IMG/VR virus record: IMGVR_UViG_3300043184_000051
Location: 1-33,963 of that record
Length of the DNA: 33,963 nucleotides
DNA from: a virus
Taxonomy: Duplodnaviria > Caudoviricetes
Direction: 5' to 3' (one strand)
Part shown: positions 1 through 24,425 of the stretch, in pieces
Numbering within the stretch: the stretch's first letter is position 1
How the letters are laid out: every line of letters begins with the position of its first letter
Notes under the pieces: model-generated
Databases searched by the model: none
Seen by the model: the letters and a program-made list of their open reading frames with translations, nothing else
Told to the model about the DNA's origin: nothing
Program-made: the position numbers and the translations under genes

Positions 1-79
1 GAATACTTGTTCGTCGTTTTGCTCATCATGGCTCCACCTTCTCAAGAGTTGGAGCCTCCGGCAATCCCGGCGCGGTTCA
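1..79 (-). mobile_element. Left end (IRL and start of orfA) of an IS3-family insertion sequence, IS51-like group; truncated by the window edge
   Basis: Minus strand from 79 reads TGAACCGCGCCGGGATTGCCGGAGGCT, an IS3-type TG terminus. It is followed by a GGAG RBS and an ATG at 29 encoding MMSKTTNKYS, a typical IS51-group OrfA N-terminus. Confidence 0.85.
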
Positions 80-147
80 GGCAAGTAACAAAGTAACAGG
101 GAAGGTCGATTGATCTATTTGGACTATCCCGAAACTGGATTGCAGAG

Positions 148-843
148 GTGCGCCACGTGTCTTTTGCCGATGATCGCGCTGTACTTCGTCAATCCGAGCC
201 GAAAATCGTCGCCGCGCCGCTGACGCTCAGCCTGCATTACGCTCAGACCATCGCAACCGATGCCATCGCCTATTATCTGAGCCATGGCGATCTGCAGGCC
301 AATATTGTGAGGCATGACAGCCTGCCGACACGGCGCGATGAAACCGCCGATGTGACCGTCATCGTTCAGTCGCCGCTGAAAGGTTTGCCGATGGCCGCCG
401 AAATCATCGCCGCTTTCCGAAGTTGCGGCGCGCCGCCCACCTTAGTAATCGTCGCCTCGGCTTTCGCGACGGCGGTGCCGAACTATGTCGAAGCCGGGAT
501 TCAGGGCGTCCTTTCCCACACAACGCGCTTGCCGGTCTTGGCCCACGCCGTTCGTCTCGTCAGCGCGGGCGGTCGGTTCGTCTCGCAGGAATTGCTGGAT
601 GCGCAATGGGCCCAGGCCGGCACATTGGCCGATCGGGTGCCCGCTCATTTCCGCGGTCGCATTCCATTGACCACGCGCGAGCGTGAAGTTTTGGCGCTTT
701 TGCGCCAAGGGCAATCCAATAAGCAGATCGCCGGCGCTCTCGAAATCGCCGAGACGACGGCCAAGCTCCACGTGCGCCGTTTGATGCAGAAACTGAATGT
801 CGAAAACCGCACCCAAGCGGCACTGGCCGCGGGCCTGATCTAA
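148..843 (+). CDS. NarL/LuxR-family response-regulator-like transcription factor (host gene)
   Basis: C-terminal LuxR HTH (LTTREREVLALLRQGQSNKQIAGALEIAETTAKLHVRRLMQKLNVENRTQAA) and a degenerate N-terminal receiver-like region. Start codon uncertain. Confidence 0.88.
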   Translation: MRHVSFADDRAVLRQSEPKIVAAPLTLSLHYAQTIATDAIAYYLSHGDLQANIVRHDSLPTRRDETADVTVIVQSPLKGLPMAAEIIAAFRSCGAPPTLVIVASAFATAVPNYVEAGIQGVLSHTTRLPVLAHAVRLVSAGGRFVSQELLDAQWAQAGTLADRVPAHFRGRIPLTTREREVLALLRQGQSNKQIAGALEIAETTAKLHVRRLMQKLNVENRTQAALAAGLI

Positions 844-943
844 AGCACCTGAATCAGGCAGCGCGAGCGCCGCCCGGCCGAGCCGGGGAGAAATCGTCGA
901 TACCGTTGAGTTTCTTCGCTTTTCCACCCCTCTCAGCAAGCCT

Positions 944-972
944 TTGACAAGGGCGGCAAAGCTCTGTACGCC
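944..972 (+). promoter_or_regulatory. Candidate sigma70 promoter for tRNA-Lys
   Basis: TTGACA (944-949), 17 bp spacer, TACGCC (967-972), about 65 bp upstream of the tRNA. Confidence 0.5.
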
Positions 973-1037
973 CATTCTTCGTCTCACCGCCGGTCGGTTG
1001 CAACCGCCCGGCAGCGAACGCGCCCGTCGCGTCGTCA

Positions 1038-1113
1038 GAGCCCATAGCTCAGCCGGTAGAGCATCTGACTTTTAATCAGAGGGTCGATGGTTCGAATCCA
1101 TCTGGGCTCACCA
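1038..1113 (+). tRNA. tRNA-Lys (anticodon TTT); probable prophage integration site
   Basis: 76 nt cloverleaf: acceptor stem GAGCCCA/TGGGCTC, D arm GCTCAGCCGGTAGAGC, anticodon loop CTTTTAA, T loop TTCGAAT, encoded CCA. Confidence 0.97.
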
Positions 1114-1129
1114 ACCTTTCCCCTTTACA

Positions 1130-1204
1130 TATCAACAACTTAGCAAAACTATAGATTTCCAGGCCGGAAATATTTACCGTCGTATTTACCAGCGGCATTT
1201 ACCG
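1130..1204 (+). promoter_or_regulatory. att-arm region: IHF consensus site and three direct repeats (candidate integrase arm-type sites)
   Basis: TATCAACAACTTA (1130-1142) matches WATCAANNNNTTR. YATTTACCR occurs at 1171, 1183 and 1196. Confidence 0.65.
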
Positions 1205-1219
1205 GCAGGGGAACAGACG

Positions 1220-2407
1220 GTGAAGTACAGCGGGGTTTTCCGGGCCGTTGTGCGGGTGCCCGGCGCGAAGGCCATTCCACGCCAGACCAAGGCCGGGATG
1301 AGGGTCTACTACTACTGCCGCCGAACCGGCGCGGCCCTGGGCACTGAACCGGGGGAAGCCCGCGCCCGGCTGGCAGAGATACAGGCCGCCGCGACCCGCC
1401 CCCATGCGCTCGATGCGGCGACCCTTGGCGGTCTGATCGCGGCGTTCTATCGGGATGAGCGGTTCACCCGGCTGAAACCGAAAACCCGTGCGGATTACCG
1501 CTGGCACCTAGAAGCCATCCGGGAGCGGTTTGGAGACCTGCCGGTGCGCGGGATTGATGAGGCATGGATTGATCGCCTGAAAGCCAAGGGCGCAGCCAAG
1601 CCGTTCCGGACCAACGCCCGTATCGCCCGTCTCCGAAGGCTGTTCGCCTTTGCCGTCCGCGCCGGTTACGCCAAGAGCAACCCCGCGGCGAAGCCTGAAA
1701 TGCTGCGGACCCGGCCGCGGCGTATCCTGTGGTCGGAAGCCGCCGAACGGAAATTCCTCAGCGCGAAGCGTGAGGTCTTGCTTGGCGGCAATCCGAAGAT
1801 GTTGAAGTCAGCAATGCGGACCCGCACAGAGCCGTTGCCGCCGATGATCCGCCGCGCTTATCTCGTCGCGGTCTACACCGCGCAACGCCTTGCCGATGTT
1901 CTGGCGATGCGATGGGAGCAATATCAAACCAAGGGCGCGCGGGCATGGCTCCGCGTCAGGCAGGCGAAGACCGATGCTGTTGTCAACATCCCGGTCCATC
2001 GCACGCTGCGCCGGGAATTGGAGACGACGCCGAAGGACCGCCGCGCCGGGCCGATCATCACAACCGCAACCGGCCGGGCTTGGCGGCAGAAGGCGTTCTT
2101 CGTCCGTTGGCGGGCTTGGATAAAGGCGGCGGGGCTTGACGGTCTACAGTTCAGAGACCTCCGCCGCACCGCGATGGTGCGGCTTGCGGAAGCCGGAGCG
2201 AACCCCATTCAGATTGCGGCGATCAGCGGTCACTCCATCGACTACTGTCAGGGCATCTTGGAGACCTACATCCCGCGAAATCAGTTGATGGGTGAGGCCG
2301 CGATCAACCTTCTGGAAGCTCATCAAGCCGACGATGAGCCTCCTTCTTCGCCGCGTCGTCGTCATCCGGCGAAGACGGTTCCGGCGAAGGCGGCGCAGCG
2401 CCGTTGA
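1220..2407 (+). CDS. int: Phage integrase, tyrosine recombinase
   Basis: Catalytic motifs TAQRLADV (R), QAKT (K), FRDLRRT (H-x-x-R variant), SGHS and ETY (Y). Adjacent to the tRNA. Confidence 0.95.
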   Translation: MKYSGVFRAVVRVPGAKAIPRQTKAGMRVYYYCRRTGAALGTEPGEARARLAEIQAAATRPHALDAATLGGLIAAFYRDERFTRLKPKTRADYRWHLEAIRERFGDLPVRGIDEAWIDRLKAKGAAKPFRTNARIARLRRLFAFAVRAGYAKSNPAAKPEMLRTRPRRILWSEAAERKFLSAKREVLLGGNPKMLKSAMRTRTEPLPPMIRRAYLVAVYTAQRLADVLAMRWEQYQTKGARAWLRVRQAKTDAVVNIPVHRTLRRELETTPKDRRAGPIITTATGRAWRQKAFFVRWRAWIKAAGLDGLQFRDLRRTAMVRLAEAGANPIQIAAISGHSIDYCQGILETYIPRNQLMGEAAINLLEAHQADDEPPSSPRRRHPAKTVPAKAAQRR

Positions 2408-2615
2408 TCCTGGCCTTGATGGCGTCAACATGGGCGTCAAGATCGCGGACATCGAAGCGAATGGCCTTGCCCCATCGAACCGGCGTCAGCAGCGGGCGGG
2501 CGTGCTTATCGAACGCGGTCACGGCGATCTGCAAATAAGCCGCCGCCTGCTCCCTGGTCAGCACACGCGGCGTCATCCCGCGCGGAAGCTCGATGTCTTT
2601 ACGAGGCAAGGGCAT
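2304..2615 (-). CDS. Excisionase-like small HTH protein
   Basis: PRVLTREQAAAYLQI...PVRWGKAIRFDVRDLDAHVD is the Xis/AlpA-like pattern. Last gene of the early operon, convergent with int. Confidence 0.75.
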   Translation of the reverse strand: MPLPRKDIELPRGMTPRVLTREQAAAYLQIAVTAFDKHARPLLTPVRWGKAIRFDVRDLDAHVDAIKARINGAAPPSPEPSSPDDDDAAKKEAHRRLDELPEG

Positions 2616-2619
2616 CCGT

Positions 2620-3234
2620 CTAGGCCGCCGCCTTTAGGAAATCATGGTGGAGCCGGAGACGCTTCATAACCTCAAAGCAGGCGATGGCGTCCGCCTCTGC
2701 GGTATGCGCGTTCTCAAGCTGGCGACCAAGGAAGAACTGATAGGCTTCACCAAGGTTCGGTGTTTTGTAGTGACGACGCCCGGCGGCCAACATCTTCGCC
2801 GTCGGCGGCAGCTTCAAAACCTTCGTTGATGCTGTTGCCGTGCAGCCCGACGGTGACGCCTTCCACTCATCCGCAAGCGCGGCGTCGTAGAACCGCATCA
2901 GCGCAATCCGAATAATTCTCGCATCGAAGGTCTCATTGTGGGCGACCCGGCGCGCGGCCTTGCGCCAGAGCGATAGAAACGCGGTAACAACGTCCCGCTC
3001 CGGTACGCCCTCGGCAAGCGCCCGCTCGGTTGTGATCCCGTGGATGGCGGCGACATCATCCGGGATGATCCACCCCTCCGGCTTCACCGTCGCGGTGTAG
3101 CGCTCAACGACCTCATCGCCGTCGGTCAGCAGCGCCGCGATCTGAACGATATGCGGCTGCCTGGGGTCTTCCGATGGATCATTGAAAAGCGGAAGCCCGG
3201 TGGTCTCGGTGTCGTAAACAAGGATCAATCCCAT
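2620..3234 (-). CDS. DEDDh 3'-5' exonuclease (DnaQ/epsilon-like)
   Basis: ExoI YDTETTG, ExoII AHNETFD, ExoIII AHTAEAD, plus the HGIT motif. Confidence 0.93.
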   Translation of the reverse strand: MGLILVYDTETTGLPLFNDPSEDPRQPHIVQIAALLTDGDEVVERYTATVKPEGWIIPDDVAAIHGITTERALAEGVPERDVVTAFLSLWRKAARRVAHNETFDARIIRIALMRFYDAALADEWKASPSGCTATASTKVLKLPPTAKMLAAGRRHYKTPNLGEAYQFFLGRQLENAHTAEADAIACFEVMKRLRLHHDFLKAAA

Positions 3235-3273
3235 AGCGCTTTCTCCTTCTCCGGTTGTTAAGTCACTGTGCGG

Positions 3274-3630
3274 TCAAAGTCGCCACTCATACCAATCGCC
3301 ATTGGCGCGCTCGAAGATCACCACGTCCTGCGGCTGCGTCATGAAGAAGAAAAGCGGGATACCGAAAAGCTCTGCTTCTCCGCGCTTGACGCTGTGAGGC
3401 GACTGAAGGCTTGGAACAAGTGGGGCGTAGTCATAGAGCGCGGGATAGTGCTCGCGGTGTAGACGGATCGCCACCGGACGCCAGCCGCGCCAGAACTGAC
3501 GCTGGCCTAGTTCCTTGCTGATCCGACGCGCTATCTCGATCCCCGGCAACAATGATGAACCGAGCCGAATTCCGTGCATCCGGCAATACGCAGAACCGCG
3601 TTCATGCCACGCGATCGGTCTGGTCATCAT
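3274..3630 (-). CDS. Hypothetical phage protein
   Basis: Start overlaps the stop of the upstream ORF in the leftward operon. No motif recognised. Confidence 0.55.
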   Translation of the reverse strand: MMTRPIAWHERGSAYCRMHGIRLGSSLLPGIEIARRISKELGQRQFWRGWRPVAIRLHREHYPALYDYAPLVPSLQSPHSVKRGEAELFGIPLFFFMTQPQDVVIFERANGDWYEWRL

Positions 3631-3812
3631 TATCTTCCCCGCTCATCGTGATCAGGAATTAGCTGGGCGCGTAACTCCCGAATTGGCCCCTGCTCGATGC
3701 GATGCGCCTCGTGAAAGTCCCTACGCGCCTCAGCCGCTTTTGCCTCAGCCCTGAGCCTGCCGATTATTTCTTGCAGCAGTCGATTTACCGCTCTCTCAAT
3801 CGGATGAAGCAT
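3630..3812 (-). CDS. Hypothetical helical phage protein (MLHPIERAVNRLL...)
   Basis: GGAGG RBS before ATG at 3812, so shorter than the ORF-track call. Coupled to its neighbours. Confidence 0.6.
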   Translation of the reverse strand: MLHPIERAVNRLLQEIIGRLRAEAKAAEARRDFHEAHRIEQGPIRELRAQLIPDHDERGR

Positions 3813-4029
3813 CTGGCCTCCGCCGCTCGGAAAGATAGCGCTTCGCCTCCTGCGCCGCGCGGACATAAGCCTCACTCGGACGCTTGTCGTCTTCCTGCCC
3901 CTTGCGGTAGGTCCGCCATATCTCGTCACGGATCGGCTTCGGCAGCGCAAACCAATGATCTCGGCACATGAAGCGATGAGTAGGGACTTTACGGGAGCAG
4001 CCCGGTGCGTGGCAGGTATGTTTAATCAC
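3796..4029 (-). CDS. Small Cys/His (probable zinc-binding) phage protein
   Basis: GTG at 4029 after GGAGAGG. Pattern HTCHAPGC...FMCRDHWFALPKPIRDEIW. Confidence 0.7.
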   Translation of the reverse strand: MIKHTCHAPGCSRKVPTHRFMCRDHWFALPKPIRDEIWRTYRKGQEDDKRPSEAYVRAAQEAKRYLSERRRPDASSD

Positions 4030-14694: not shown

Positions 14695-14716
14695 GAGTAC
14701 AATTTGGGTTGTACTC
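14695..14716. promoter_or_regulatory. Candidate repressor operator (perfect 8-bp inverted repeat) at the leftward early promoter
   Basis: GAGTACAA-TTTGGG-TTGTACTC. It overlaps a possible minus-strand promoter TTGCTT-N16-TACAAC (14735-14708). Confidence 0.65.
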
Positions 14717-14760: not shown

Positions 14761-15174
14761 CTACGGTTTTTTCTTGGCGGCCGGGCGGGGGGCGTCGGTG
14801 AGCAGGCGGCGCAGAGCGGCCAACTCCTCAGCCATGGCGGTAAGCTGCGCCTGAACCGCGGCGGCCAACTCCGCCGACTGTGCGGCTTGGAGATTGGCGA
14901 GCGCGCCCTGTCCGAAAATCGCCGTCTGCATATCGAGCAGCGGCGCGATTTCCTGCGCCGTTACGCCCTTTTCGATCAATACACGGGAGAGCGGAAGCGC
15001 GAATTCCGGCGGCAAGAAGTCGCCTTTGAACCGATTTTCATAATGGTTGATGAGCTGCTTGGAGCGGCCGGTGGCCTGCGCTAGCTCGACTTGGGTAAGC
15101 CCGGCGCGTTCGCGGAGGACGCGCAATAGGCGGCCGATATGGCCCGGCGGTTTTGGCTGGTCTGCTCCCTGCAT
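14761..15174 (-). CDS. XRE-family HTH prophage repressor (CI-like, no S24 peptidase domain)
   Basis: LRVLRERAGLTQVELAQATGRSKQLINHYEN plus a C-terminal coiled coil. ATG 15174 preferred over the track's TTG at 15213. Confidence 0.85.
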   Translation of the reverse strand: MQGADQPKPPGHIGRLLRVLRERAGLTQVELAQATGRSKQLINHYENRFKGDFLPPEFALPLSRVLIEKGVTAQEIAPLLDMQTAIFGQGALANLQAAQSAELAAAVQAQLTAMAEELAALRRLLTDAPRPAAKKKP

Positions 15175-15184
15175 GTAGTCGGGG

Positions 15185-15213
15185 CTTATACGCCCATCGG
15201 TCAAAAAGTACAA
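15185..15213 (-). promoter_or_regulatory. Repressor promoter (PRM-like)
   Basis: TTGTAC (15213-15208), 17 bp spacer, TATAAG (15190-15185), ending 10 bp before the ATG. No Shine-Dalgarno. Confidence 0.65.
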
Positions 15214-15290
15214 CTCCGATCATCCTCCCCCTTGACAACCCACCAAAGCCTGGGGTCCAAGCCATTATACCGCACGGGAGGGGACGGGCG

Positions 15291-15719
15291 ATGGCGCGGC
15301 GATCACGCCCTTGGACACCCGAGGAAGACCAGGCGCTGATGCTTAGGGTAGGCCGCCATGAAGACATGACGCAGATCGCCGCTGATCTCCGGCGCAATCT
15401 TCGTGAATGCCATATCCGCTACACCAAGCTCCGCGAACACAATCGAATTCAGACCTACCGCGCGCAACGCTCGGTTCGGGCGCAGCTACCGTCCGGCCCG
15501 TTCCGTGCGCACAACGCCGTCGCCGGGCGCAGCGCGCCGAATGATGCGGCGCTCCGTGATGAATGGCTTAAGCGCAACCGTCCGACGAAGTGCCCGCCGG
15601 GCTTCGCCATCGGCTATGCGCGAATGAACTGGCTGCCTGAAATCGCCGCAGACGAGCAGCCGGTTGAACCCGTTGCGGCACTCCCCAAACCAAACCGAAA
15701 GAAGGAAGTGAAGTCATGA
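15291..15719 (+). CDS. Myb/SANT-like (GcrA-related) HTH regulator in the Cro position
   Basis: ATG 15291 after GGGAGGGG. RPWTPEEDQALMLRVGRHEDMTQIAADLRRNLRECHIRYTKL. Confidence 0.7.
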   Translation: MARRSRPWTPEEDQALMLRVGRHEDMTQIAADLRRNLRECHIRYTKLREHNRIQTYRAQRSVRAQLPSGPFRAHNAVAGRSAPNDAALRDEWLKRNRPTKCPPGFAIGYARMNWLPEIAADEQPVEPVAALPKPNRKKEVKS

Positions 15720-16297
15720 TGCAGACGCCGTCAGGACAGGCCGTCGTTCTTGCCCGTGAAACGATGGTCGGCGACTTGAGAGATAACATCCTCGAAATCT
15801 TGAAGCACAATCACGACGCCCTGCCGTGGAATATGCGCGGCGTCGATAAGCAGCACGAAATCATCGACAACGTAACCCGTCGCGCTGAGGCCATCGTCGA
15901 GCGGGCGGTTGATATTCTGGCGTCCGATGGCCGCCGGGTGATGACCGGCAAGCTGGAAAGCGTCGCCGTCAAAGACGGCTTCGTCGCCAAGGTTAAGCTC
16001 AGCAAAGACGATCCGCTCCGTCATGCCTTGGTCGATGCCACCGGGCATAAGGTCGTCATCGTCGTCGCGGCGACCGATGATTATTCCGGTGCCCGCGGCG
16101 ATGTCAGGATTGAAAGCCCGCAGCGCGGCTTGCCGTTCGATAAGGCTAAGGACGGCGAAGAACTGCCGGAGCCGACGGCGGAAGAAGACGACGCCGAAAG
16201 TCAGACCGACGACATCGACGAAGATGATGACGTCGATGAAGACGGCGACGATGACGGCGAAGAATTTGACGACAGCGACGACGAAGAGCACCGCTGA
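15716..16297 (+). CDS. Phage protein with very acidic C-terminal tail
   Basis: Globular N-terminal region followed by EEDDAESQTDDIDEDDDVDEDGDDDGEEFDDSDDEE. Confidence 0.75.
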   Translation: MMQTPSGQAVVLARETMVGDLRDNILEILKHNHDALPWNMRGVDKQHEIIDNVTRRAEAIVERAVDILASDGRRVMTGKLESVAVKDGFVAKVKLSKDDPLRHALVDATGHKVVIVVAATDDYSGARGDVRIESPQRGLPFDKAKDGEELPEPTAEEDDAESQTDDIDEDDDVDEDGDDDGEEFDDSDDEEHR

Positions 16298-16321
16298 CCG
16301 ATGAGGGCTTGATCGGGGAAG

Positions 16322-16744
16322 ATGCGCGGCCGTCGTATCGCACTGCCGGTTCCGAAAGAACAGGACCTGCAGATGGCGGTCGTGCGCTTCCTCAACCTCG
16401 CTCTGCCGCGGGAGCGCGTGGCGGTGGAGTGGACCTGCTTCCCGGCTGGCGGCGGCGGAAAAATCCGCGGCTCGATCCTCAAAGGCATGGGGCTTAAATC
16501 CGGTTGGCCCGATCTTCAATTCCTCTACCGCGGCCGGATGTTTTTCATCGAATTAAAGCGCCCCGGAGAGAAGCCGGAAAAACATCAGCGCGATCTTCAT
16601 GACCGCCTCAGACACTGCGGCGGCCATGTGGATTGGGCGGATAGCGTCGAACAGGTCGAAGCCATCCTTCGCCGGTGGGGCATCCCCCTTGTCGCTTCCG
16701 TCTGCATGGGCAACCCCAACGCTTTTGAGCAGGCCATCCGATGA
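16322..16744 (+). CDS. VRR-NUC domain nuclease (putative Holliday-junction resolvase)
   Basis: EQDLQ...MGLKSGWPDLQFL...FFIELKRPG...Q...H..L...G. Confidence 0.88.
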   Translation: MRGRRIALPVPKEQDLQMAVVRFLNLALPRERVAVEWTCFPAGGGGKIRGSILKGMGLKSGWPDLQFLYRGRMFFIELKRPGEKPEKHQRDLHDRLRHCGGHVDWADSVEQVEAILRRWGIPLVASVCMGNPNAFEQAIR

Positions 16745-17304
16745 CCTCAGCCGCCGCCGTACAGGTTCCTCAGTTTTCATTCCGCAACGTCGATGAGCTT
16801 GTCCCCTACGCCAACAACGCCCGCACCCATAGCGAAGCGCAGGTGGCGCAGATCGCGGCGAGCATCGCTGAATTCGGCTTCAACGCCCCGGTTCTCATCG
16901 ACGGTGCCAACGGCATCATCGCCGGTCACGGCCGCGTCATGGCGGCGAAGAAGCTCGGTCTTGTTCAGGTGCCGGTGATCGAACTCTCCCACATGACCGA
17001 GGCGCAGAAGCGGGCCTATATCATCGCGGACAACAAGATCGCGCTTAACGCCGGATGGGACGAAGAAAAGCTTGCCGCTGAAATCGCGGCGCTTTCCGAT
17101 GTCGGCGTCATCAACATCGAAACGCTCGGTTTCAGCGAAGATGAAGTCGCCTCACTTCTTGCCGGTCATGGCGATGACGCACCGACGGCAAAAAAGCCGC
17201 CCGCACAGTTCCCGTCCTATGACGAGAAAATCCAGACCGAGCACCAATGCCCTAAATGCGGCTATCGCTGGTCCGGCAAATCCCAAGCCACGGATGATGA
17301 ATGA
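16741..17304 (+). CDS. ParB/Srx N-terminal domain protein with C-terminal zinc ribbon
   Basis: LVPYANNARTH, SIAEFGFNAPVLID, IIAGHGRVMAA, IADNK, and terminal HQCPKCGYRW. Confidence 0.9.
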   Translation: MTSAAAVQVPQFSFRNVDELVPYANNARTHSEAQVAQIAASIAEFGFNAPVLIDGANGIIAGHGRVMAAKKLGLVQVPVIELSHMTEAQKRAYIIADNKIALNAGWDEEKLAAEIAALSDVGVINIETLGFSEDEVASLLAGHGDDAPTAKKPPAQFPSYDEKIQTEHQCPKCGYRWSGKSQATDDE

Positions 17305-18500
17305 GCGAGAAGCCGCCCTATCGGGTCCCGTCGATGGCGGAGATTTCAGCGCTTGCCTGGAACGGCTTCAATGTCGCTTCGACCTTTTCCGGCTGCGGCG
17401 GCTCGTCTCTCGGTTATCGCATGGCGGGCTTCCGTGTCCTCTACGCCAGTGAATTCGTCGATGCCGCGCGCGATACCTACCGCGCCAACTGCGCGCCATA
17501 TACCTTCATTGACGGCCGCGACATCCGGCAGACCCAGGCGGAAGACATTCTAGCCGCCTGCGGCCTTGCCAGCGGGGAGCTTGATCTGTTGGACGGCTCT
17601 CCGCCGTGCGCGTCATTTTCTACCGCAGGCAAGCGCCATAAGGCTTGGGGGAAGGTCAAAGCCTACAGCGACACCCAGCAGCGCGCCGACGATTTGTTCT
17701 TTGAGTTCGCCCGTATCGTCGAAGGCGTTCGGCCGAAGACCTTCGTTGCGGAGAATGTCAGCGGTCTCATCAAGGGCGTTGCGAAGGGATATTTCCTGGA
17801 AATCCTTCGACGCCTCAAAGCCGCGGATTACGAAGTCGAAGCAAGACTTCTTGATGCGCAATGGCTCGGTGTTCCGCAGGCCCGACAGCGGCTGATCTTC
17901 GTCGGCGTCCGGCGTGATCTAGCCGACGTTTTCAACGTCGCTCCGGCCCACCCTTCTCCGCTTCCCTATCTCTATTCGGTGCGTGATGCGCTGCCCTGGC
18001 TGACCTCTGTGATCCATGACACCAGCGGCCAATTCGGAGCCGGTAAAGTCATCAACCGACCGTCGCCGTCGATCACCGTGGGCGTCAATTCGGTGAATAG
18101 TCTTCACTTTAAGATCGCCGGAGCCGCGCAGCCGGTTGAGCCGGAAGCCGATATTTCCCGCTTCGCCATCGCTGAGGAATGGGACAAGCTTGCACCGGGC
18201 GGGCAGAGCGACCGTTATTTTCAGCTTGTTCGCCCTGATCCGGATCAGCCGGTGCCGACGATCACCGCGCATGGCGGAACGACGAGCCTCGCCAGCGTCA
18301 CGCACCCGACGGAGCGTCGGAAGTTTTCGATTGCAGAGCTTCGACGGCTGTGCGGTTTCCCGGATGATTTTATTCTGACCGGAACCTATGCGCAGCAATG
18401 GGAGCGGCTTGGCCGCGCCGTCCCGCCGGTGATGATGATGCACATCGCCGCCGCCGTCCGTGATCGTATCCTTATCCCGCTTCGTGAAAGAGGTGCGTGA
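17301..18500 (+). CDS. DNA cytosine-C5 methyltransferase-family enzyme; predicted carboxymethyltransferase
   Basis: Motif I FSGCGG, IV GSPPC, VI ENV, VIII QARQR, IX RLCGFPDDF. Motif X is LGRAVPP, with Arg372 where Asn is usual. Confidence 0.9.
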   Translation: MSEKPPYRVPSMAEISALAWNGFNVASTFSGCGGSSLGYRMAGFRVLYASEFVDAARDTYRANCAPYTFIDGRDIRQTQAEDILAACGLASGELDLLDGSPPCASFSTAGKRHKAWGKVKAYSDTQQRADDLFFEFARIVEGVRPKTFVAENVSGLIKGVAKGYFLEILRRLKAADYEVEARLLDAQWLGVPQARQRLIFVGVRRDLADVFNVAPAHPSPLPYLYSVRDALPWLTSVIHDTSGQFGAGKVINRPSPSITVGVNSVNSLHFKIAGAAQPVEPEADISRFAIAEEWDKLAPGGQSDRYFQLVRPDPDQPVPTITAHGGTTSLASVTHPTERRKFSIAELRRLCGFPDDFILTGTYAQQWERLGRAVPPVMMMHIAAAVRDRILIPLRERGA

Positions 18501-18571
18501 TGTGCGGCATCGCCGGGACATTCAACGTGCCGAAATTTTATCAGCCTATGGACCAACGGCTGTTTAGGTGA
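18500..18571 (+). pseudogene. 23-codon remnant of an AsnB-like (Ntn, class II) glutamine amidotransferase
   Basis: MCGIAGTFNVPKFYQPMDQRLFR*. Has its own GAGGTG RBS and a TGATG overlap with the MTase stop, and ends 3 nt before the next ATG. Confidence 0.7.
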
Positions 18572-18574
18572 ACT

Positions 18575-19255
18575 ATGGATATTCCCCGGAATTGGACGTT
18601 CGAGACCAGTGAAGTCGCTAAAGGATTTGAGCGGCATGTCAGAGAACAGTTGCCTTGGTATGAACTGATCACCGGCGCGGTGGCTCATGTCGCCCGCCAT
18701 TACATTCCGACCGGCGGCCGCATCTACGATATCGGCGCTTCAACCGGCAATATCGGCCGCGCGCTAGCAGAGACCATCGAGGACCGCAAGGCGGAGCTTA
18801 TCGGCATCGAGGCGTCGGCTTCGATGGCTGAGCTTTACAGCGCGCCGGGCAAGGTAATTTGCGCTGATGCCCTCCATTTCGATTTCGAGCCATTCGATGT
18901 CGGCATCCTGATGCTGGTCATGATGTTTATGCCGGTCGCTGAACGCGGTGCTTTCTTAGAACGGCTTGCCGCAAAGGCCCGGCCCGGCGGAGCGCTGATC
19001 ATCATCGACAAAGTCGAAGTCGGCGGCGCCTACGCCGCAACGGCGCTTTACCGACTGGCGCTTGCCGGGAAGGTCGCTGCCCAAGTCCCTGCTGATGAGA
19101 TTATCGCGAAAGAGCTTTCGCTTGGCGGCGTTCAGCGGCCATTGAGCGGCCCGCCGATTGCTGGCGCGGTGGAGTTCTTCCGCTTCGGTGCCTTCGCCGG
19201 ATGGGTCTGGGAGGCCGCGGAGCGCCAGGCCCGGCCGCCGGGCTATGGACAGTAA
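18575..19255 (+). CDS. CmoA-like class I SAM-dependent enzyme (carboxy-SAM synthase-like)
   Basis: Collinear with CmoA as I recall its sequence: NWTFE..VA..F..HV..QLPWY, IYDIGASTG, AER..FL..L....RPGGALIIIDK, EIIAK..SL..V, FFRFGAF. Confidence 0.8.
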   Translation: MDIPRNWTFETSEVAKGFERHVREQLPWYELITGAVAHVARHYIPTGGRIYDIGASTGNIGRALAETIEDRKAELIGIEASASMAELYSAPGKVICADALHFDFEPFDVGILMLVMMFMPVAERGAFLERLAAKARPGGALIIIDKVEVGGAYAATALYRLALAGKVAAQVPADEIIAKELSLGGVQRPLSGPPIAGAVEFFRFGAFAGWVWEAAERQARPPGYGQ

Positions 19256-19290
19256 AACGTCATTGCACTACGGCTAAGCCCTGTGAAGAA

Positions 19291-19322
19291 GAAAGCCCGT
19301 CGGCGCGAACCGGCGGGCTTTC
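19291..19322. terminator. Strong hairpin after the modification operon (terminator or attenuator candidate)
   Basis: GAAAGCCCGTCGG-CGCGAA-CCGGCGGGCTTTC, a 13-bp stem with one G-U pair. The U tract is short. Confidence 0.55.
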
Positions 19323-19429
19323 AGGGGTGACGCCCCTTGCAGGGAACAGCGAAGCGTCGTGATCTCTATACAAGCCCAGCCGTTCCCGGTCAAATGTGAT
19401 TATACACCGCCGCAATACGGGGACGGGCT

Positions 19430-20029
19430 GTGCAGGCAATTCATGTTGAGGTCAAAAACCGCGACGCGCTCTATGCGCTCGATGCGCTTGCCCGTCGGCA
19501 AATTCCCTTCGCCACCGCCGTTGCGCTGACCCGTACCGCGATTGAAGCCCGCGATGCTGTGCGGATGCAGGCGAAGGAGCGCTTCACCATCCGAACCCCT
19601 TGGGTGCTTAAAGGCATTCAGGCGAAGTCAGCGGATAAGCGCAGCCTGACCGCGCATGTCATCGCCCGCGACGACTTCATGGCGCTACAGGAAGAAGGCG
19701 GGGTGAAGGAAGCCCGTGGCAAAGCGCTAGGCGTGCCGGTGGAAGCCCGCAATCCGAAGACGTTGGTAACCCGACCGAGTAAATGGCCCGGCGCGCTGCT
19801 ACGACGGAAACGCAAATTCTTCACCGGTCAGGTCAAGGGCAATGTCCCCGCCGTATTCCGGCGTGATGAGGACGGCGGCCTGACGCTGTTCTACACCCTG
19901 CGGCCTAGGGTTTCGATCAAGCCCCGTTTCGGCATGGTGGAGAAGGTCCGTGAGGTTGTGACTTCACGATATGCCGCGCTGTTCGCGGAAGCCTTCGCCC
20001 AAGCCCGCAAGACGGCGAAGCCGCGATGA
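19430..20029 (+). CDS. Basic phage protein, lambda gpZ-like (tail completion/neck family)
   Basis: RQIPFATAVALTRTAIEARDAV...F..RTPW...QEEGG.K pattern; Arg/Lys rich. Confidence 0.6.
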   Translation: MQAIHVEVKNRDALYALDALARRQIPFATAVALTRTAIEARDAVRMQAKERFTIRTPWVLKGIQAKSADKRSLTAHVIARDDFMALQEEGGVKEARGKALGVPVEARNPKTLVTRPSKWPGALLRRKRKFFTGQVKGNVPAVFRRDEDGGLTLFYTLRPRVSIKPRFGMVEKVREVVTSRYAALFAEAFAQARKTAKPR

Positions 20030-20367
20030 TCCTCAACCGCTATGACGTCGCCGATAGCTGGTCGGATTGGTGCCCCGACCTGGATACCATCGACCGCGTC
20101 GGCATGGCGTTTCTGCTGGAATGCTCGGCCAACGGCGTCGCCTATACCTCGACGCAGCGCCTAGCCCGTGCGCTCAGCATCACGGAGAGCCGGGCGGAGC
20201 AATTGATCTTGCGGCTTAAATTCCGGGGATACGCAAGAATTGCGCACTTGGGCGATTGCATCGAAGACGTCGATCAGTCGACCAGCCAATTCTATCAAAT
20301 CTACTTTGACGACATCTGCCTAAACGGCGGTCAGCCGCTCACCCTAATCCACGTCGCCAGACAGTGA
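20026..20367 (+). CDS. Winged-HTH-like hypothetical protein
   Basis: STQRLARALSITESRAEQLILRLKFRGY; ATGA overlap. Confidence 0.6.
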   Translation: MILNRYDVADSWSDWCPDLDTIDRVGMAFLLECSANGVAYTSTQRLARALSITESRAEQLILRLKFRGYARIAHLGDCIEDVDQSTSQFYQIYFDDICLNGGQPLTLIHVARQ

Positions 20368-20377
20368 GGACAGCACG

Positions 20378-21421
20378 ATGGCAAAGCTCCCCTTTGTGAA
20401 GTTTTTCCCCAACGACTGGCGGGCGGAGACATCTGTTCAGTTGTCGTCGCTGTCGGCGCGCGGCCTGTGGCTCGAAATGCTGCTGATCATGCACCGGGCA
20501 GAGCCGCGGGGGCACCTGCTGGTCGACGGCAATCCGGTGGAGCCGCCGGAGTTGGCAAGGCTGGTCGGTGCGCCGCTTGCCGAGGTCGAACAGGGGCTAT
20601 CCGAGCTTGAGCGCCGGGGTGTTTTTTCCCGCAACCGCGCCGGGGTGATTGTGTCCCGGCGGATGGTGCGTGAGGAGAAGCTGTCGAGCAAACAGAGAGA
20701 TAACGTCGAGAAAAGGTGGAGAAAACCGCAAAAACCAGACCCAGAGCAAACCACTGAGAACAAAGAGCAATCCGACTTTGGTAATACCAAACCGATACCA
20801 AACGGATACCAAACCGATACCCATCAGAGGTTCAGAGGCTCAGAGGTTCAGAATAAGGCTAGTTCTGAACCGTCAGAGCAAGCTTCACCGTCCCCTGTTA
20901 CCGTTAGAGCAAACGGAGAGGTCGGGGCTAGTTCTGAACCAGCGCGCGCGCGCAAGCTCGAACTGGACCCGGAGCCGGAACGCGCCGCCACCGTCATCCA
21001 ACACCCGAACCAGCAGTCATGGTCAGCCCAAGCCGTCACGGCCCTGCGCAAGCTCGGAGTTGATCGGGACAAGGCGCAGGAGGCCGTCGCGATCTGGCGG
21101 AAGCGTTTCAGCCAAGACGACATCGATGAAGCCATCGACACCGCAAAGTTGGAGGACCGACAGGGCGGTCAAAACATCATCGGCTTCGTTGGTGCGGTTC
21201 TCCGTCGGATGAAGCGGGAGCATGAGCAAGTCCAGGCCGCAGAGCGCCGGGCTGGCAAGAAGCAGCAGCGGACACGGTGGTCCCCGCGCTTCGGTCAGGT
21301 GACTTACACAATCGGCGAACGCCTGGACCTTCCCGATAAAAGCTACATCGACGAAGACGGCGTGCTCTACGAAAAGAACCTCAACGGTCCGGGATGGGAT
21401 CGTTACGGCGGCGGCTGCTAG
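20378..21421 (+). CDS. Phage replication initiator-like protein (lambda O analogue)
   Basis: N-terminal PFVKFFPNDW...LSARGLWLEMLLIMH...SRRM winged-helix pattern, a low-complexity middle carrying DNA repeats, and position directly before the helicase. Confidence 0.75.
   Translation: MAKLPFVKFFPNDWRAETSVQLSSLSARGLWLEMLLIMHRAEPRGHLLVDGNPVEPPELARLVGAPLAEVEQGLSELERRGVFSRNRAGVIVSRRMVREEKLSSKQRDNVEKRWRKPQKPDPEQTTENKEQSDFGNTKPIPNGYQTDTHQRFRGSEVQNKASSEPSEQASPSPVTVRANGEVGASSEPARARKLELDPEPERAATVIQHPNQQSWSAQAVTALRKLGVDRDKAQEAVAIWRKRFSQDDIDEAIDTAKLEDRQGGQNIIGFVGAVLRRMKREHEQVQAAERRAGKKQQRTRWSPRFGQVTYTIGERLDLPDKSYIDEDGVLYEKNLNGPGWDRYGGGC
20777..20940. repeat. Iteron cluster, probable phage replication origin
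   Basis: ATACCAAAC(C/G)G x3.5 at 11-bp period (20784-20821) with an inverted TTTGGTA at 20777. TCAGAGGY x3.6 (20824-20852). GGCTAGTTCTGAACC at 20857 and 20926. Confidence 0.75.
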
Positions 21422-21452
21422 CGTTTAGAAAATCGGAAAACGGGGAACAGCG

Positions 21453-23294
21453 ATGAGCGTAGCGGAAGAACTTGGTGCCAACGGAATACGGCCGCGGAGC
21501 TTTGAGCCCGGATCGTACAAAACCACATGTCCGAAGTGTTCTCACACCCGGAAGAAGAAAAGCGATCCTTGCCTCAGCATCACCATCAACGCGGATGAAA
21601 CCGCGCTGTGGTACTGCCACAACTGCGAATGGAAGGGAGCCGTCGGGAAATCCGACCACGGCAACCGGCAGACGAAAATCTACAAACGGCCGAAGCTACC
21701 GGAGGAACGGAAGACATCGGCGAATATGCTGGCGTGGTTCAAGAACCGCGGGATCAGCGAGGAAACCGTTCAGGAGTTCGGCTGCTACCGCACCGCGCAT
21801 TTCTTCCCGCAGCGAAACGGCAAGGTGAACTGCATCGCCTTCCCCTACACCGTCGGCGGCGAAGTCGTGAATGTGAAATACCGCGCGGATGTCGAAGACC
21901 CGCATACCGGGGCCTGGAACAAGATCATGGCGCAGGAGAGCGAGGCGCAGCCCTGTTTCTTCAACGCCGACAACATGGCGACCGATGAAGTCATCTTTGC
22001 CGAAGGCGAGACAGACGTGATGTCGCTTTGGGAAGCCGGTTATCGTTCGGTCGTCTCGCTTCCCAATGGTGCAGGCAAGACGGCGAAGTTCGATGCGCAT
22101 GATCTCCGCTTCGTTCCGTTCAGCTTCCACGCCGAACAGGTCATCAAGCTGTCGAAGGTCATCATCGCCACCGACATGGACGCCCCAGGTGAGGCGCTGG
22201 CGAAGGAAATCGCATGGCGCGTCGGAGCCGACCGCTGCTTCCGCGCCAATTGGCCCGATGACTGCAAAGACGCAAATGAGGTCTTGGTAAAGCACGGCGC
22301 TGAGAAGTTACGGGACTGCATCAACTCCGCAGCGCCTTGGCCGCTCGACGGCATTATGCGGCCGGTCGCATTTCGTGATGACGTCTTCGCTATCTATCGC
22401 GGTGAAATCGACAAAGGTCTCAGCACCGGATTTCTGGCGCTTGATCCCTACGTCCAATTGATGCCGTGTTCATTCAACGTCATCACCGGCTTTCCGAACT
22501 ACGGCAAATCGACGTTCATGAACCAGCTCTGCCTGAACCTGTCGAAGCGCGAAGGCTGGCGTTGGGCGGTGTTCTCACCCGAGCAGACCCCGCGATGGAA
22601 CATGATCCGCCTCGCCGAAATGTTCCTCGGCAAAAGCTTCAACGGCAGCGCCTATCTCCGGATGACGGAGGCAGAACTGGCCTTCGCCTTGGAGTGGATC
22701 GACAAGCACTTCGTCTTCCTCGGCTCGCCTGAGGCCGCACCGACGATTGAATGGCTACTCGAACGCGCCCGCTACGCCGCGGTTCGCTACGGCATCAACG
22801 GCCTCGTCATCGATCCCTGGAACGAAGTCGAGCAAAACAGAAGTCGCTACACCACCGAAACGGAATGGATCGGCGGCTCCATCGGACAGATCAAGCGCTT
22901 CAACCGGGCGCACGAAGTTTCCTCCTTCGTCGTCGCCCATCCGTCCAAACCGGCAAAGGAAAACCGCGGACAGATGAAACCGCCCGGCCTCTACGACATC
23001 AGCGGCTCACAGCACTGGGTCAACAAAGCCGACCTCGGCTTGGTCGTTCATCGCGATGACGATGCAGGGCGAACCGACATCCACATCCGCAAGGTCCGGG
23101 AGCAGCCGACCTTCGGCAAGCTCGGCACCGCGCATCTGCGGTTCAGCGGCACCACCCGGCGCTTCGAGGAAATCGAGGAACCCGCCCCCGGCCTCGGCTT
23201 CGGCAGTACCACCCCGGCTAGACCCTACCGGCCCTCGGCACCGCCCCCCGACCCGGAACCGGATCACCCGGCCTTTTCCGGCTTCGCGGAGTAA
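21453..23294 (+). CDS. Bifunctional primase-helicase (T7 gp4/Twinkle-like, SF4)
   Basis: Zinc domain CPKC...CHNC, TOPRIM EGETD and DMD, KDANE, Walker A GFPNYGKST, VIDPWN, VVAHP, YDISGS. Confidence 0.92.
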   Translation: MSVAEELGANGIRPRSFEPGSYKTTCPKCSHTRKKKSDPCLSITINADETALWYCHNCEWKGAVGKSDHGNRQTKIYKRPKLPEERKTSANMLAWFKNRGISEETVQEFGCYRTAHFFPQRNGKVNCIAFPYTVGGEVVNVKYRADVEDPHTGAWNKIMAQESEAQPCFFNADNMATDEVIFAEGETDVMSLWEAGYRSVVSLPNGAGKTAKFDAHDLRFVPFSFHAEQVIKLSKVIIATDMDAPGEALAKEIAWRVGADRCFRANWPDDCKDANEVLVKHGAEKLRDCINSAAPWPLDGIMRPVAFRDDVFAIYRGEIDKGLSTGFLALDPYVQLMPCSFNVITGFPNYGKSTFMNQLCLNLSKREGWRWAVFSPEQTPRWNMIRLAEMFLGKSFNGSAYLRMTEAELAFALEWIDKHFVFLGSPEAAPTIEWLLERARYAAVRYGINGLVIDPWNEVEQNRSRYTTETEWIGGSIGQIKRFNRAHEVSSFVVAHPSKPAKENRGQMKPPGLYDISGSQHWVNKADLGLVVHRDDDAGRTDIHIRKVREQPTFGKLGTAHLRFSGTTRRFEEIEEPAPGLGFGSTTPARPYRPSAPPPDPEPDHPAFSGFAE

Positions 23295-23669
23295 CCGCAC
23301 CCTACCCCGGCCTCTAGCATCCACGCCGCGCCCCAAATTCCGGGGGCTAGGCGCGTTGCAAGGGGTGGGGCGCTATACCCCTACGTAGCAGCCTCTAGAC
23401 CCCATTGTACGGCCGCCCAATCGCGATTATAACCCCGCCTACGGAGTACAATCCGTTGCCCTTGCCCCTACCGGCCGCGGCCCCTACCCTCTCCAGGCGC
23501 TTGGGCTGTCCTCCCAGGCGCGGCGGGGAGCGGGCAGGCCAGCAGCCGCGGCACCCCTCCCCGTCACCCCTACCCATATCCCATTGATAAACAACAGCAA
23601 TCAGTGAAACCGCGGGGCGTCGGTACAACAGCATTTGACGCTAACCCACTGGTTCGCATAGAAGTTCAC

Positions 23670-23725
23670 GGGTCCTTCCTGGGGTGTTATGCCGCGGGTA
23701 CGGCGCGCGCGCAGTAAAACGCTAG
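23670..23725 (+). other. Candidate cos site (cosQ/cosN-like)
   Basis: GGGTCCT (identical to lambda cosQ) at 23670-23676, then GC-rich GCGGGTACGGCGCGCGCGC...CGCTA, just upstream of the small terminase. Confidence 0.6.
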
Positions 23726-23765
23726 CGAGCGGGCGCTAAAAAAGGTTTGAACATCAGAGGGTTAG

Positions 23766-24425
23766 ATGGGGGTGCCGATCCGGCAAGCCGCCCGCGAACT
23801 CGGTGTTTCGGACGCCGCGGTTAGCAAGGCGATCAAGACCGGCCGGATCAGCGCTGAACCGGATGGTACGATCGACGTCGGACGCGCCCGGCGGGATTGG
23901 GCGGCCAACACCAACCCGGCATGGTCCCGGATCGGGCAGGACGGCAGCCGACGGCCGGACCCGAAGCAGAAGAAAAAGCCCCCGCGCAAAGCGCCGCTCA
24001 AAGGCACCGCCAAGCGCGATGAGACCGCGATCCCGGCCCCCGCCGATACGGCAACAGGTCAAGGCACTTCACCTGCGGACGCGCCGGAAGGAACGATCAA
24101 TCTCGCCCGCGCGCGAACCGCCAAGATGGCGGTTGACGCTCAGCTTGCCCGCCTGGAATTGCAGAAGGCGCAAGGCGCGCTCGTCGATGCGAAGGCGATG
24201 CGGGCGCTGTGGTTTACGACGCTGCGGACCATGCGCGACCGGCTGAACAACATTCCTTCAAGGGTTGCCGCCCGCTGTGCGCTTGAGACCGATCCGCGCA
24301 AGGTTCAATTCATCATCGAGGACGAAATCCAAAGCGTCCTGACGGAATTACAGAATGATCTCCGACCTATTGGCGGGCAGCCCGTCACTACACCATCTTC
24401 TGACGGCCGCACGGCAGGCGCTTGA
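23766..24425 (+). CDS. Terminase small subunit (Nu1-like)
   Basis: N-terminal HTH IRQAARELGVSDAAVSKAIKTGRI and coiled coil AQLARLELQKAQGALVD. Overlaps the large subunit. Confidence 0.85.
   Translation: MGVPIRQAARELGVSDAAVSKAIKTGRISAEPDGTIDVGRARRDWAANTNPAWSRIGQDGSRRPDPKQKKKPPRKAPLKGTAKRDETAIPAPADTATGQGTSPADAPEGTINLARARTAKMAVDAQLARLELQKAQGALVDAKAMRALWFTTLRTMRDRLNNIPSRVAARCALETDPRKVQFIIEDEIQSVLTELQNDLRPIGGQPVTTPSSDGRTAGA

Follow-up and report, generated by a model that had tools for sequence, protein, structure and literature searches.

The stretch of DNA analysed here (33,963 nt, hereafter the window) comprises positions 1 to 33,963 of the IMG/VR virus record IMGVR_UViG_3300043184_000051 (Duplodnaviria; Caudoviricetes) and covers the left part of a lambda-like prophage in its integrated state. 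It carries a cassette with genes for a ParB-like protein, a predicted DNA cytosine carboxymethyltransferase of the CmoX type and a CmoA-like protein predicted to make carboxy-S-adenosylmethionine (carboxy-SAM, Cx-SAM), and between the last two genes lies what is left of an amide-ligase gene. The features of the cassette are as follows (ORF, open reading frame; Ntn, N-terminal nucleophile).

16741..17304, plus strand: ParB/Srx-fold protein, 187 aa, with a GHGR motif (phrog_620, E 4e-57)
17301..18500, plus strand: predicted CmoX-type DNA cytosine-C5 carboxymethyltransferase, 399 aa, with SPPC 100-103, ENV 151-153, R195/R197 and motif-X R372 (PF00145, E 3e-51)
18500..18526, plus strand: 5' remnant of a glutamine-amidase (Ntn, Cys2) amide-ligase gene (profile score 30.1)
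18526..18567, plus strand: 3' remnant of the same ligase gene in another frame, with its own TAG (rank 2 against a ligase-end profile)
18500..18571, plus strand: 23-aa fusion mini-ORF made by the deletion, with its stop 3 nt before cmoA
18575..19255, plus strand: CmoA-like predicted carboxy-SAM synthase, 226 aa, of the KExSL/QRP subtype, with a fold and sequence match to 4GEK (phrog_4752, E 9e-43)

The ParB and transferase genes overlap at ATGA 17301-17304, the transferase gene and the 23-aa ORF overlap at TGATG 18498-18502, and the stop codon of the 23-aa ORF (TGA 18569-18571) is separated by a 3-nt gap from the ATG of the cmoA-like gene at 18575. A preliminary description of the window, made from its letters alone, had placed four tightly coupled frames at exactly these coordinates, and its calls of ParB-like, C5-methyltransferase and CmoA-like proteins agree with the family matches listed above.

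The transferase, the CmoA-like protein and their relatives

Family libraries name the product of 17301-18500 a C5-methyltransferase (TIGR00675 above its cut-off and PADLOC MTase_II, in addition to PF00145). Its top match in the PDB is SpCmoX (8YF3; E 5.6e-65), which leads the next match, the HaeIII methylase (E 4.6e-22), by 43 orders of magnitude. SpCmoX belongs to the CmoA-CmoX-CmoY system of Synechococcus phage S-B43 (Yang et al., Nat Commun 2025;17:281, PMC12783734). According to that paper, SpCmoX acts by attack of a Cys on C6 and Arg-guided transfer of the carboxymethyl group, the wild-type enzyme accepts Cx-SAM only and not S-adenosylmethionine (SAM), and SPPC together with R350 served as the criterion that defined 5,615 CmoX candidates. 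Window CmoX is 38% identical to SpCmoX and retains all nine of the SpCmoX residues named there for cofactor binding and catalysis. In particular, F29, E51, F52 and D74 align with the cofactor contacts F25, E47, F48 and D69, the SPPC catalytic motif S100-C103 aligns with S95-C98, and R372 corresponds to the carboxylate-binding R350; the cytosine-binding residues E151, R195 and R197 are invariant. Arg372 occupies the motif X position at which a canonical C5-methyltransferase has an Asn next to the SAM methyl (HaeIII has GNAV there). The protein retains 77 of the 78 family-conserved positions, which is within the normal range. Note that the recognition region (residues about 210-330) aligns poorly with SpCmoX, and because it differs from that of SpCmoX, whose target is GC, we predict no target motif for the window; word counts gave no usable signal either, GC and CG dinucleotides not being depleted in the window.

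Relatives were drawn from viral, metagenome and genome collections as the best 80 matches per scan, not as a random sample, and for three of the relative scans the figures cover the matches listed. CmoX queries yielded 140 complete sequences, which formed 128 clusters at 90% identity. A cmoA gene lies within 4.5 kb in 105 of the 118 clusters with Arg at motif X (Arg-type) and in 0 of the 10 clusters with Asn there (Asn-type). Twelve of the 13 Arg-type clusters without cmoA are on contigs that are too short and one is a true miss; where at least 2.5 kb is present on both flanks, cmoA stands beside 31/32 Arg-type versus 0/5 Asn-type clusters. Homologues of the two genes thus co-occur, the point that the preliminary description had named in advance as a check on its reading. 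Of 102 clusters of Arg-type CmoX, 50 have a CmoA partner of the KExSL/QRP subtype and 52 one of another type, and among the 105 Arg-type clusters with cmoA, no ligase was seen in 66, a long ligase in 20 and a short ligase in 19.

Asn-type sequences were seen in 12 close relatives of CmoX that form one clade (L014, L243, L247, L252, L300, L302, L305, L311, L313, L326, L328 and L329 in our numbering of fetched loci), all with Asn at motif X and without cmoA in view. We entertained the idea that they had reverted from carboxymethylation, as they were nested among Arg-type sequences in a quick tree, but found no support for it: in an approximately unbiased (AU) test, for which 47 of the 54 rows were used (two long branches and five rows of unread state were left aside), monophyly of the Arg type was not rejected (p 0.73), and the constrained tree scored higher.

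E. coli CmoA (4GEK) is the first PDB match of the CmoA-like protein both by sequence profile (E 3e-47) and by predicted fold (template modelling score, TM, 0.81), the top fold matches being the E. coli and H. influenzae CmoA proteins. Among the E. coli contact residues listed in PMC3663124, Y39, D62, G64, S66 and D117 are retained, D89 is changed to E and E164 to D. The bacterial tRNA enzyme (E. coli 4GEK/4IWN; TIGR00740) therefore resembles the window protein in its fold and in most SAM-binding residues. It differs from it at R199, N132 and N90, in the family cut-off, under which the window protein falls, and in its partner, which is CmoB in the tRNA system and a DNA C5 enzyme in the window. 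The window protein is a typical member of the KExSL subtype, which accounts for 197 of 253 unique CmoA sequences and is one clade with 100/100 support, and it retains 50 of the 51 subtype-conserved positions, again within the normal range. Residues H21, M117, R160, E180, S182, Q187 and R188 are invariant in the subtype (197/197) and differ from those of other CmoA types. None of five genomes with the subtype has a CmoA above the TIGR00740 cut-off (their completeness is not given), which fits a need for the element to bring its own CmoA. Synthesis of Cx-SAM from SAM and prephenate has been demonstrated for SpCmoA and EcCmoA (PMC12783734), and we infer that the window subtype would be active as well.

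A different neighbour of the KExSL CmoA was also seen. At L030:4469-7654 the cmoA gene is preceded by a ParB gene, a ParB-ParB-methyltransferase-like gene (phrog_5475, E 2e-107) and a HAD-like gene. This ParB-fused transferase arrangement recurs in 20 of 70 clusters from the CmoA query (L023-L055, L101 and many viral loci), and the block takes the place of cmoX upstream of terminase, in most cases in genomes of Alphaproteobacteria. The fused gene is a candidate for a second carboxymethyltransferase; the authors of PMC12783734 did not find an N6/N4-type enzyme in a preliminary search of their own.

The ParB model (AlphaFold2, AF2) has a mean predicted local distance difference test score (pLDDT) of 87, and the top PDB matches of its N-domain are Noc/ParB. 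Its C-terminal tail (residues 154-179, window 17200-17277; PxxFP..ETEHxCPKCGYxWSG) is the most conserved part of the protein, with a mean identity of 0.63 versus 0.43 for the N-domain in 25 relatives, and this acidic CPxC tail is modelled as a small two-strand element. With a profile built from CmoX-side ParBs, many rows of which are close kin, the tail was found in 163 of 169 ParBs encoded upstream of an Arg-type CmoX, in 7 of 9 beside Asn-type relatives and in 0 of 51 next to the ParB-fused transferase, which also goes with the KExSL CmoA. This distribution suggests that the tail serves the C5-type transferase. A literature search on ParB with a zinc ribbon returned nothing relevant.

Remnants of a ligase gene between cmoX and cmoA

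On the sequence comparisons that follow, the 74-nt gap between cmoX and cmoA joins, out of frame, the two ends of a ligase gene from which about 1.3 kb has been lost. Against a profile of 20 N-termini of cassette ligases, the first nine codons after TGATG are the top scorer (30.1) of 54,911 9-mers of the window, the next scoring 8.5, and the N-terminal Cys2 Ntn motif is present at their start. The TGATG junction itself is found in 6 of 29 intact CmoX-ligase-CmoA relatives. The 3' remnant, whose TAG lies 7 nt ahead of cmoA, ranks second of 54,911 against the ligase-end profile with or without the L182 ligase in that profile. Its score against the L182 ligase end is 42 (next best of 50,213, 26), a match that was noticed after reading L182 and is thus post hoc. 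In total, 68 nt are left of a ligase gene of about 1,370 nt, the GATase and Asn_synthase domains of which (intact, about 455 aa) are not intact. Of the five closest CmoX relatives, three still carry the ligase intact at the same position (L182, 74%; L191, 72%; L104, 72%); intact neighbour ligase genes measure 1,359-1,380 nt, and in the intact relative L009 the ligase has both GATase and Asn_synthase domains.

The preliminary description had taken the 23-aa ORF for an AsnB relic. Its likeness to the ligases is indeed more than chance, but the anatomy is a different one: the ligase-derived part of the ORF is its first nine codons only, and the C-terminus of the ligase lies in the other frame. 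Reading the whole ORF as an in-frame fusion of the N- and C-terminal ends was tried, and its second half scored -5.6 versus 8.9-47 for family members (rank 31 of 48,081; shuffle p 0.0018) and -13.9 against the ligase-end profile; because the other-frame match is far better, the in-frame reading was dropped. The mini-ORF could keep translational coupling to cmoA. The earlier proposal that the ancestral cluster amidated its product is supported, and the ancestral product would have been amidated with ammonia derived from glutamine. (PMC12783734 describes a glutamine-amidase ligase cluster, A0A7T0Q3R0, as a predicted ammonia user that was not obtained in soluble form.) No ligase match was found anywhere in the window by either profile.

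Among 33 other loci with a gap of at least 40 nt between cmoX and cmoA, no convincing ligase scar was found, a weak internal LCG in L204 being the only faint scar-like signal. At L264:1708-1858 a ligase gene after cmoX breaks off some 50 codons in, close to where the contig ends, and is possibly another broken ligase. Inserts of 0.6-1.0 kb with additional genes, some of them on the opposite strand, separate cmoX (or the ligase) from cmoA in L008, L022, L019, L170, L176, L180, L182 and L250.

Predicted product and alternative explanations

We consider it probable that the ParB-CmoX-CmoA cassette of the prophage converts SAM to carboxy-SAM and carboxymethylates cytosine at C5 after replication and that, its ligase gene being reduced to a 68-nt scar, the product is uncapped 5-carboxymethylcytosine (5cxmC). 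The CmoA-like protein would use SAM and prephenate to form carboxy-SAM, and C103 of CmoX would attack cytosine C6 while R372 holds the carboxylate, giving 5cxmC in replicated DNA. With the ligase gone, the carboxymethyl acid would stay free; it is the out-of-frame deletion of the ligase gene that leads us to predict an uncapped base. By analogy with SpCmoX, for which HhaI resistance has been demonstrated (PMC12783734, accessible text), the modification likely protects phage DNA from restriction; the same text yielded no CRISPR data. The core of the preliminary description, namely that the phage supplies its own carboxy-SAM and carboxymethylates cytosine post-replicatively, is very likely right.

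Several points weigh against this explanation. Window CmoX has D176, and window CmoA has A152, in place of a conserved Gly. The TIGR00740 score of the CmoA-like protein is 62.6 bits, far under the curated cut-off of 193.3, its predicted fold is nearly as close to the small-molecule methyltransferases CysG/BelI (TM 0.75-0.77), and it is 19% identical to SpCmoA. It has E180 at the carboxylate-binding R199 of E. coli CmoA and M113 at N132 (and A at N90). The Asn-type rows are one clade, so that the count of 0/10 is nearly a single evolutionary event and is overrated by its Fisher p values, and the relatives were the best matches of each scan. In S-B43 virions the glycine-capped base was the only one found, and free 5cxmC was not (PMC12783734). 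Finally, the window ends within late genes, which leaves room for a ligase elsewhere in the element.

The divergence of the KExSL CmoA bears on what is transferred. It is conceivable, if unlikely, that the product of this CmoA is a different SAM derivative, or that the enzyme draws on some other carbon donor, so that CmoX writes a related but different C5 adduct: the residues invariant in the subtype are unlike those of other CmoA types, the subtype is one clade that shares 19% identity with SpCmoA in the case of the window, and it also stands beside the unrelated ParB-fused transferase. However, active SpCmoA likewise lacks R199, having E188 there, L at the N132 position and H at the H21 position. 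Moreover, the cofactor pocket of CmoX is unchanged, and one and the same CmoX family is combined with both types of CmoA and with the same ligases, enzymes that require a carboxylate. That CmoX is instead an ordinary SAM-dependent C5 methyltransferase making 5-methylcytosine next to an unrelated methyltransferase is what the library names (PF00145, TIGR00675 above cut-off, MTase_II) would suggest, and is hardly credible given that Arg replaces the motif-X Asn, that wild-type SpCmoX refuses SAM and that the presence of cmoA tracks the Arg state.

Two further alternatives concern the fate of the cassette and of the base. We regard it as quite improbable that the prophage is a resident one whose cassette has begun to decay, with the ligase deletion as the first step and with little or no modification. 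The element is integrated and one gene has already been destroyed, but CmoX and CmoA retain 77/78 and 50/51 conserved positions, within the normal range, the frames are open and coupled, and cassettes without ligase are the commonest form (66/105). In addition, the motif GANTC is still absent from the prophage part (1114-33963; 0 in 32.85 kb, about 70 being expected from 4-mer counts), which argues for little drift since integration. Very little weight falls, likewise, on the idea that 5cxmC is made and then capped by a ligase encoded elsewhere in the prophage or by a co-resident element. The element probably extends about 24 kb past the window, to judge from a 56,973-nt contig that starts at window 1084, and in Pseudomonas phage PaBG the ligase is separated from cmoX by other genes. 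Against this, neither profile matched a ligase in the window, the ligase lies inside the ParB-to-cmoA block in the architectures examined, and the part beyond the window should hold tail and lysis genes.

A bolder version of the 5cxmC explanation, which we put forward tentatively and think rather doubtful, is that free, negatively charged 5cxmC is the final virion base in a non-GC motif, that the active site of CmoA has been rebuilt around a relocated Arg (R160 or R188) and that ParB is a clamp whose CPxC tail docks the transferase on phage DNA. If true, docking would explain the ParB partner left open by PMC12783734, the scar would record a step from an amidated to a free-acid pathway, and free 5cxmC would be a final base, which published work did not find in virions.

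The chemistry and the kind of system are already published, and the window adds no new chemistry or kind; the caution in the preliminary description that the core chemistry might not be new was apt, since it is in print in PMC12783734. (That paper is the only literature on natural phage carboxymethylation that we found in a search from which subscription papers mostly fell outside.) Of the features that had been called distinctive, the ParB partner, the collapsed amidotransferase and the altered CmoA residues give little support to that view: ParBc neighbours occur in 1,660 contigs of the survey in PMC12783734, cassettes lacking a ligase are the majority and an amidase ligase cluster has been published there, and the altered CmoA residues are those of an ordinary member of a large subtype, R199 being missing in active SpCmoA too. 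Like S-B43, the window has a C5-methyltransferase fold with SPPC and motif-X Arg, an adjacent CmoA homologue and an AsnB-type ligase in the cluster (in the window its remnants); a ParBc neighbour is shared with the surveyed contigs. Unlike S-B43, which is a 214-kb cyanophage, it is an integrated lambda-like prophage with the gene order ParB-X-(ligase)-A and a divergent CmoA subtype; the S-B43 ligase is a short glycine ligase whereas the lost one was of the long glutamine-amidase type, and the GC target of SpCmoX cannot be assumed given the different recognition region. Streptomyces phage TurkishDelight (gp122-125) has an intact ParB-X-ligase-A cassette in the window's gene order, with a CmoX 65% identical to that of the window. 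The window remnants share a Cys-start N-terminus and a C-terminal motif with the glutamine-amidase ligase cluster and with TurkishDelight, in which, by contrast, the ligase is intact (466 aa) and the CmoA is of another subtype (28%). Moraxella phage Mcat8 (KR093632, L002; annotated hypothetical) is represented in GenBank by a phage record for which the predicted end product is that of the window: it has ParB, Arg-type CmoX and a CmoA of the same subtype (45%) and no ligase, and differs in having no ligase scar and in that its three-gene cassette abuts terminase/packaging genes. What the window offers is an extension of the 2025 carboxymethylcytosine system to integrated prophages and a clean natural ligase loss in which both gene ends are readable and close relatives keep the gene intact. 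The window and these relatives form a simple pair for comparing capped with uncapped modification, and specific residues in the tail of ParB and in the CmoA subtype are a starting point for asking what ParB does and how a CmoA without R199 works.

Prophage setting and host

The remaining features of the window are as follows.

148-843: LuxR-type gene, host-like, upstream of tRNA-Lys
1038-1113, plus strand: tRNA-Lys(TTT), start of the window's left-end context
1220-2407, plus strand: tyrosine integrase, after the tRNA-Lys gene
14761..15213, minus strand: XRE repressor (PF13560, E 1e-10)
16322..16744, plus strand: VRR-NUC-like nuclease gene (PF08774, E 0.004; phrog_824, E 1e-23)
19291..19322: 13-bp hairpin (arms 19291-19303 and 19310-19322) with a U-rich tail on the minus strand

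The tRNA-Lys gene and the integrase (1038..2407) likely mark the left end of the prophage, and together with the XRE repressor and the lambda-like head genes they bear out the temperate setting proposed earlier. The ORF map shows a leftward gene block between integrase and repressor and, diverging from the repressor, a rightward block that holds VRR-NUC, the cassette, a gpZ/neck-like gene, an O-like initiator, primase-helicase, terminases, a lambda-type portal, an S49 protease and decoration and capsid genes; the cassette thus stands ahead of the replication and packaging genes. From this position we infer that it would be expressed after induction from the rightward operon, together with the replication genes. 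A promoter search of 14.5-21 kb gave one consensus site, which is not above chance. The VRR-NUC gene is translationally coupled to the ParB gene (ATGA 16741-16744) and lies in the same operon; no tblastn match to it was found in the fetched relative loci, and it is at most a possible part of the cassette. The preliminary description had the operon closed by a strong hairpin. The hairpin is stable (z -3.56; 0 of 200 shuffles as stable), but its U-tract faces the minus strand, and terminator prediction finds it terminator-like solely for that strand.

On either side of the XRE repressor lie a short palindrome (14695-14716) and a matching half-site (15207-15216), which are possible operators. Where a Cro-type gene would be expected, the first rightward ORF (15222-15719) instead shows weak similarity to Myb/SANT-like proteins (PF13921, E 0.02).

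Shuffles of the whole window contain about 165 GANTC sites; the 1.1-kb host flank has three and the prophage part none. Only four of 293 fetched loci of at least 4 kb are free of GANTC (L021, L182, L191 and L018); L021 is another copy of the same phage, and L182 and L191 are two of the nearest CmoX relatives, both with an intact ligase. GANTC is the CcrM motif of Alphaproteobacteria. Its depletion has been described in a Pelagibacter provirus and in about half of 33 pelagiphages (PMC8919816 and PMC9516812). This pattern of sites suggests a CcrM-bearing alphaproteobacterium as the host.

The stretch is present in one public freshwater metagenome run (X1); no RNA data set was listed as containing it. 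The 56,973-nt contig, from this run, spans 15500-21000 unbroken with one synonymous difference and begins inside the tRNA gene; the window may derive from it, so that it does not count as independent support. No joint indicating excision was found within window 1-4000 among the contigs of run X1. The second viral record, L021, corresponds to window 19173-24232 and is 100% identical over 5,060 nt. The PaBG record (L339) is a GenBank record with an Arg-type CmoX and a CmoA, accompanied by ParB and an asparagine synthase.

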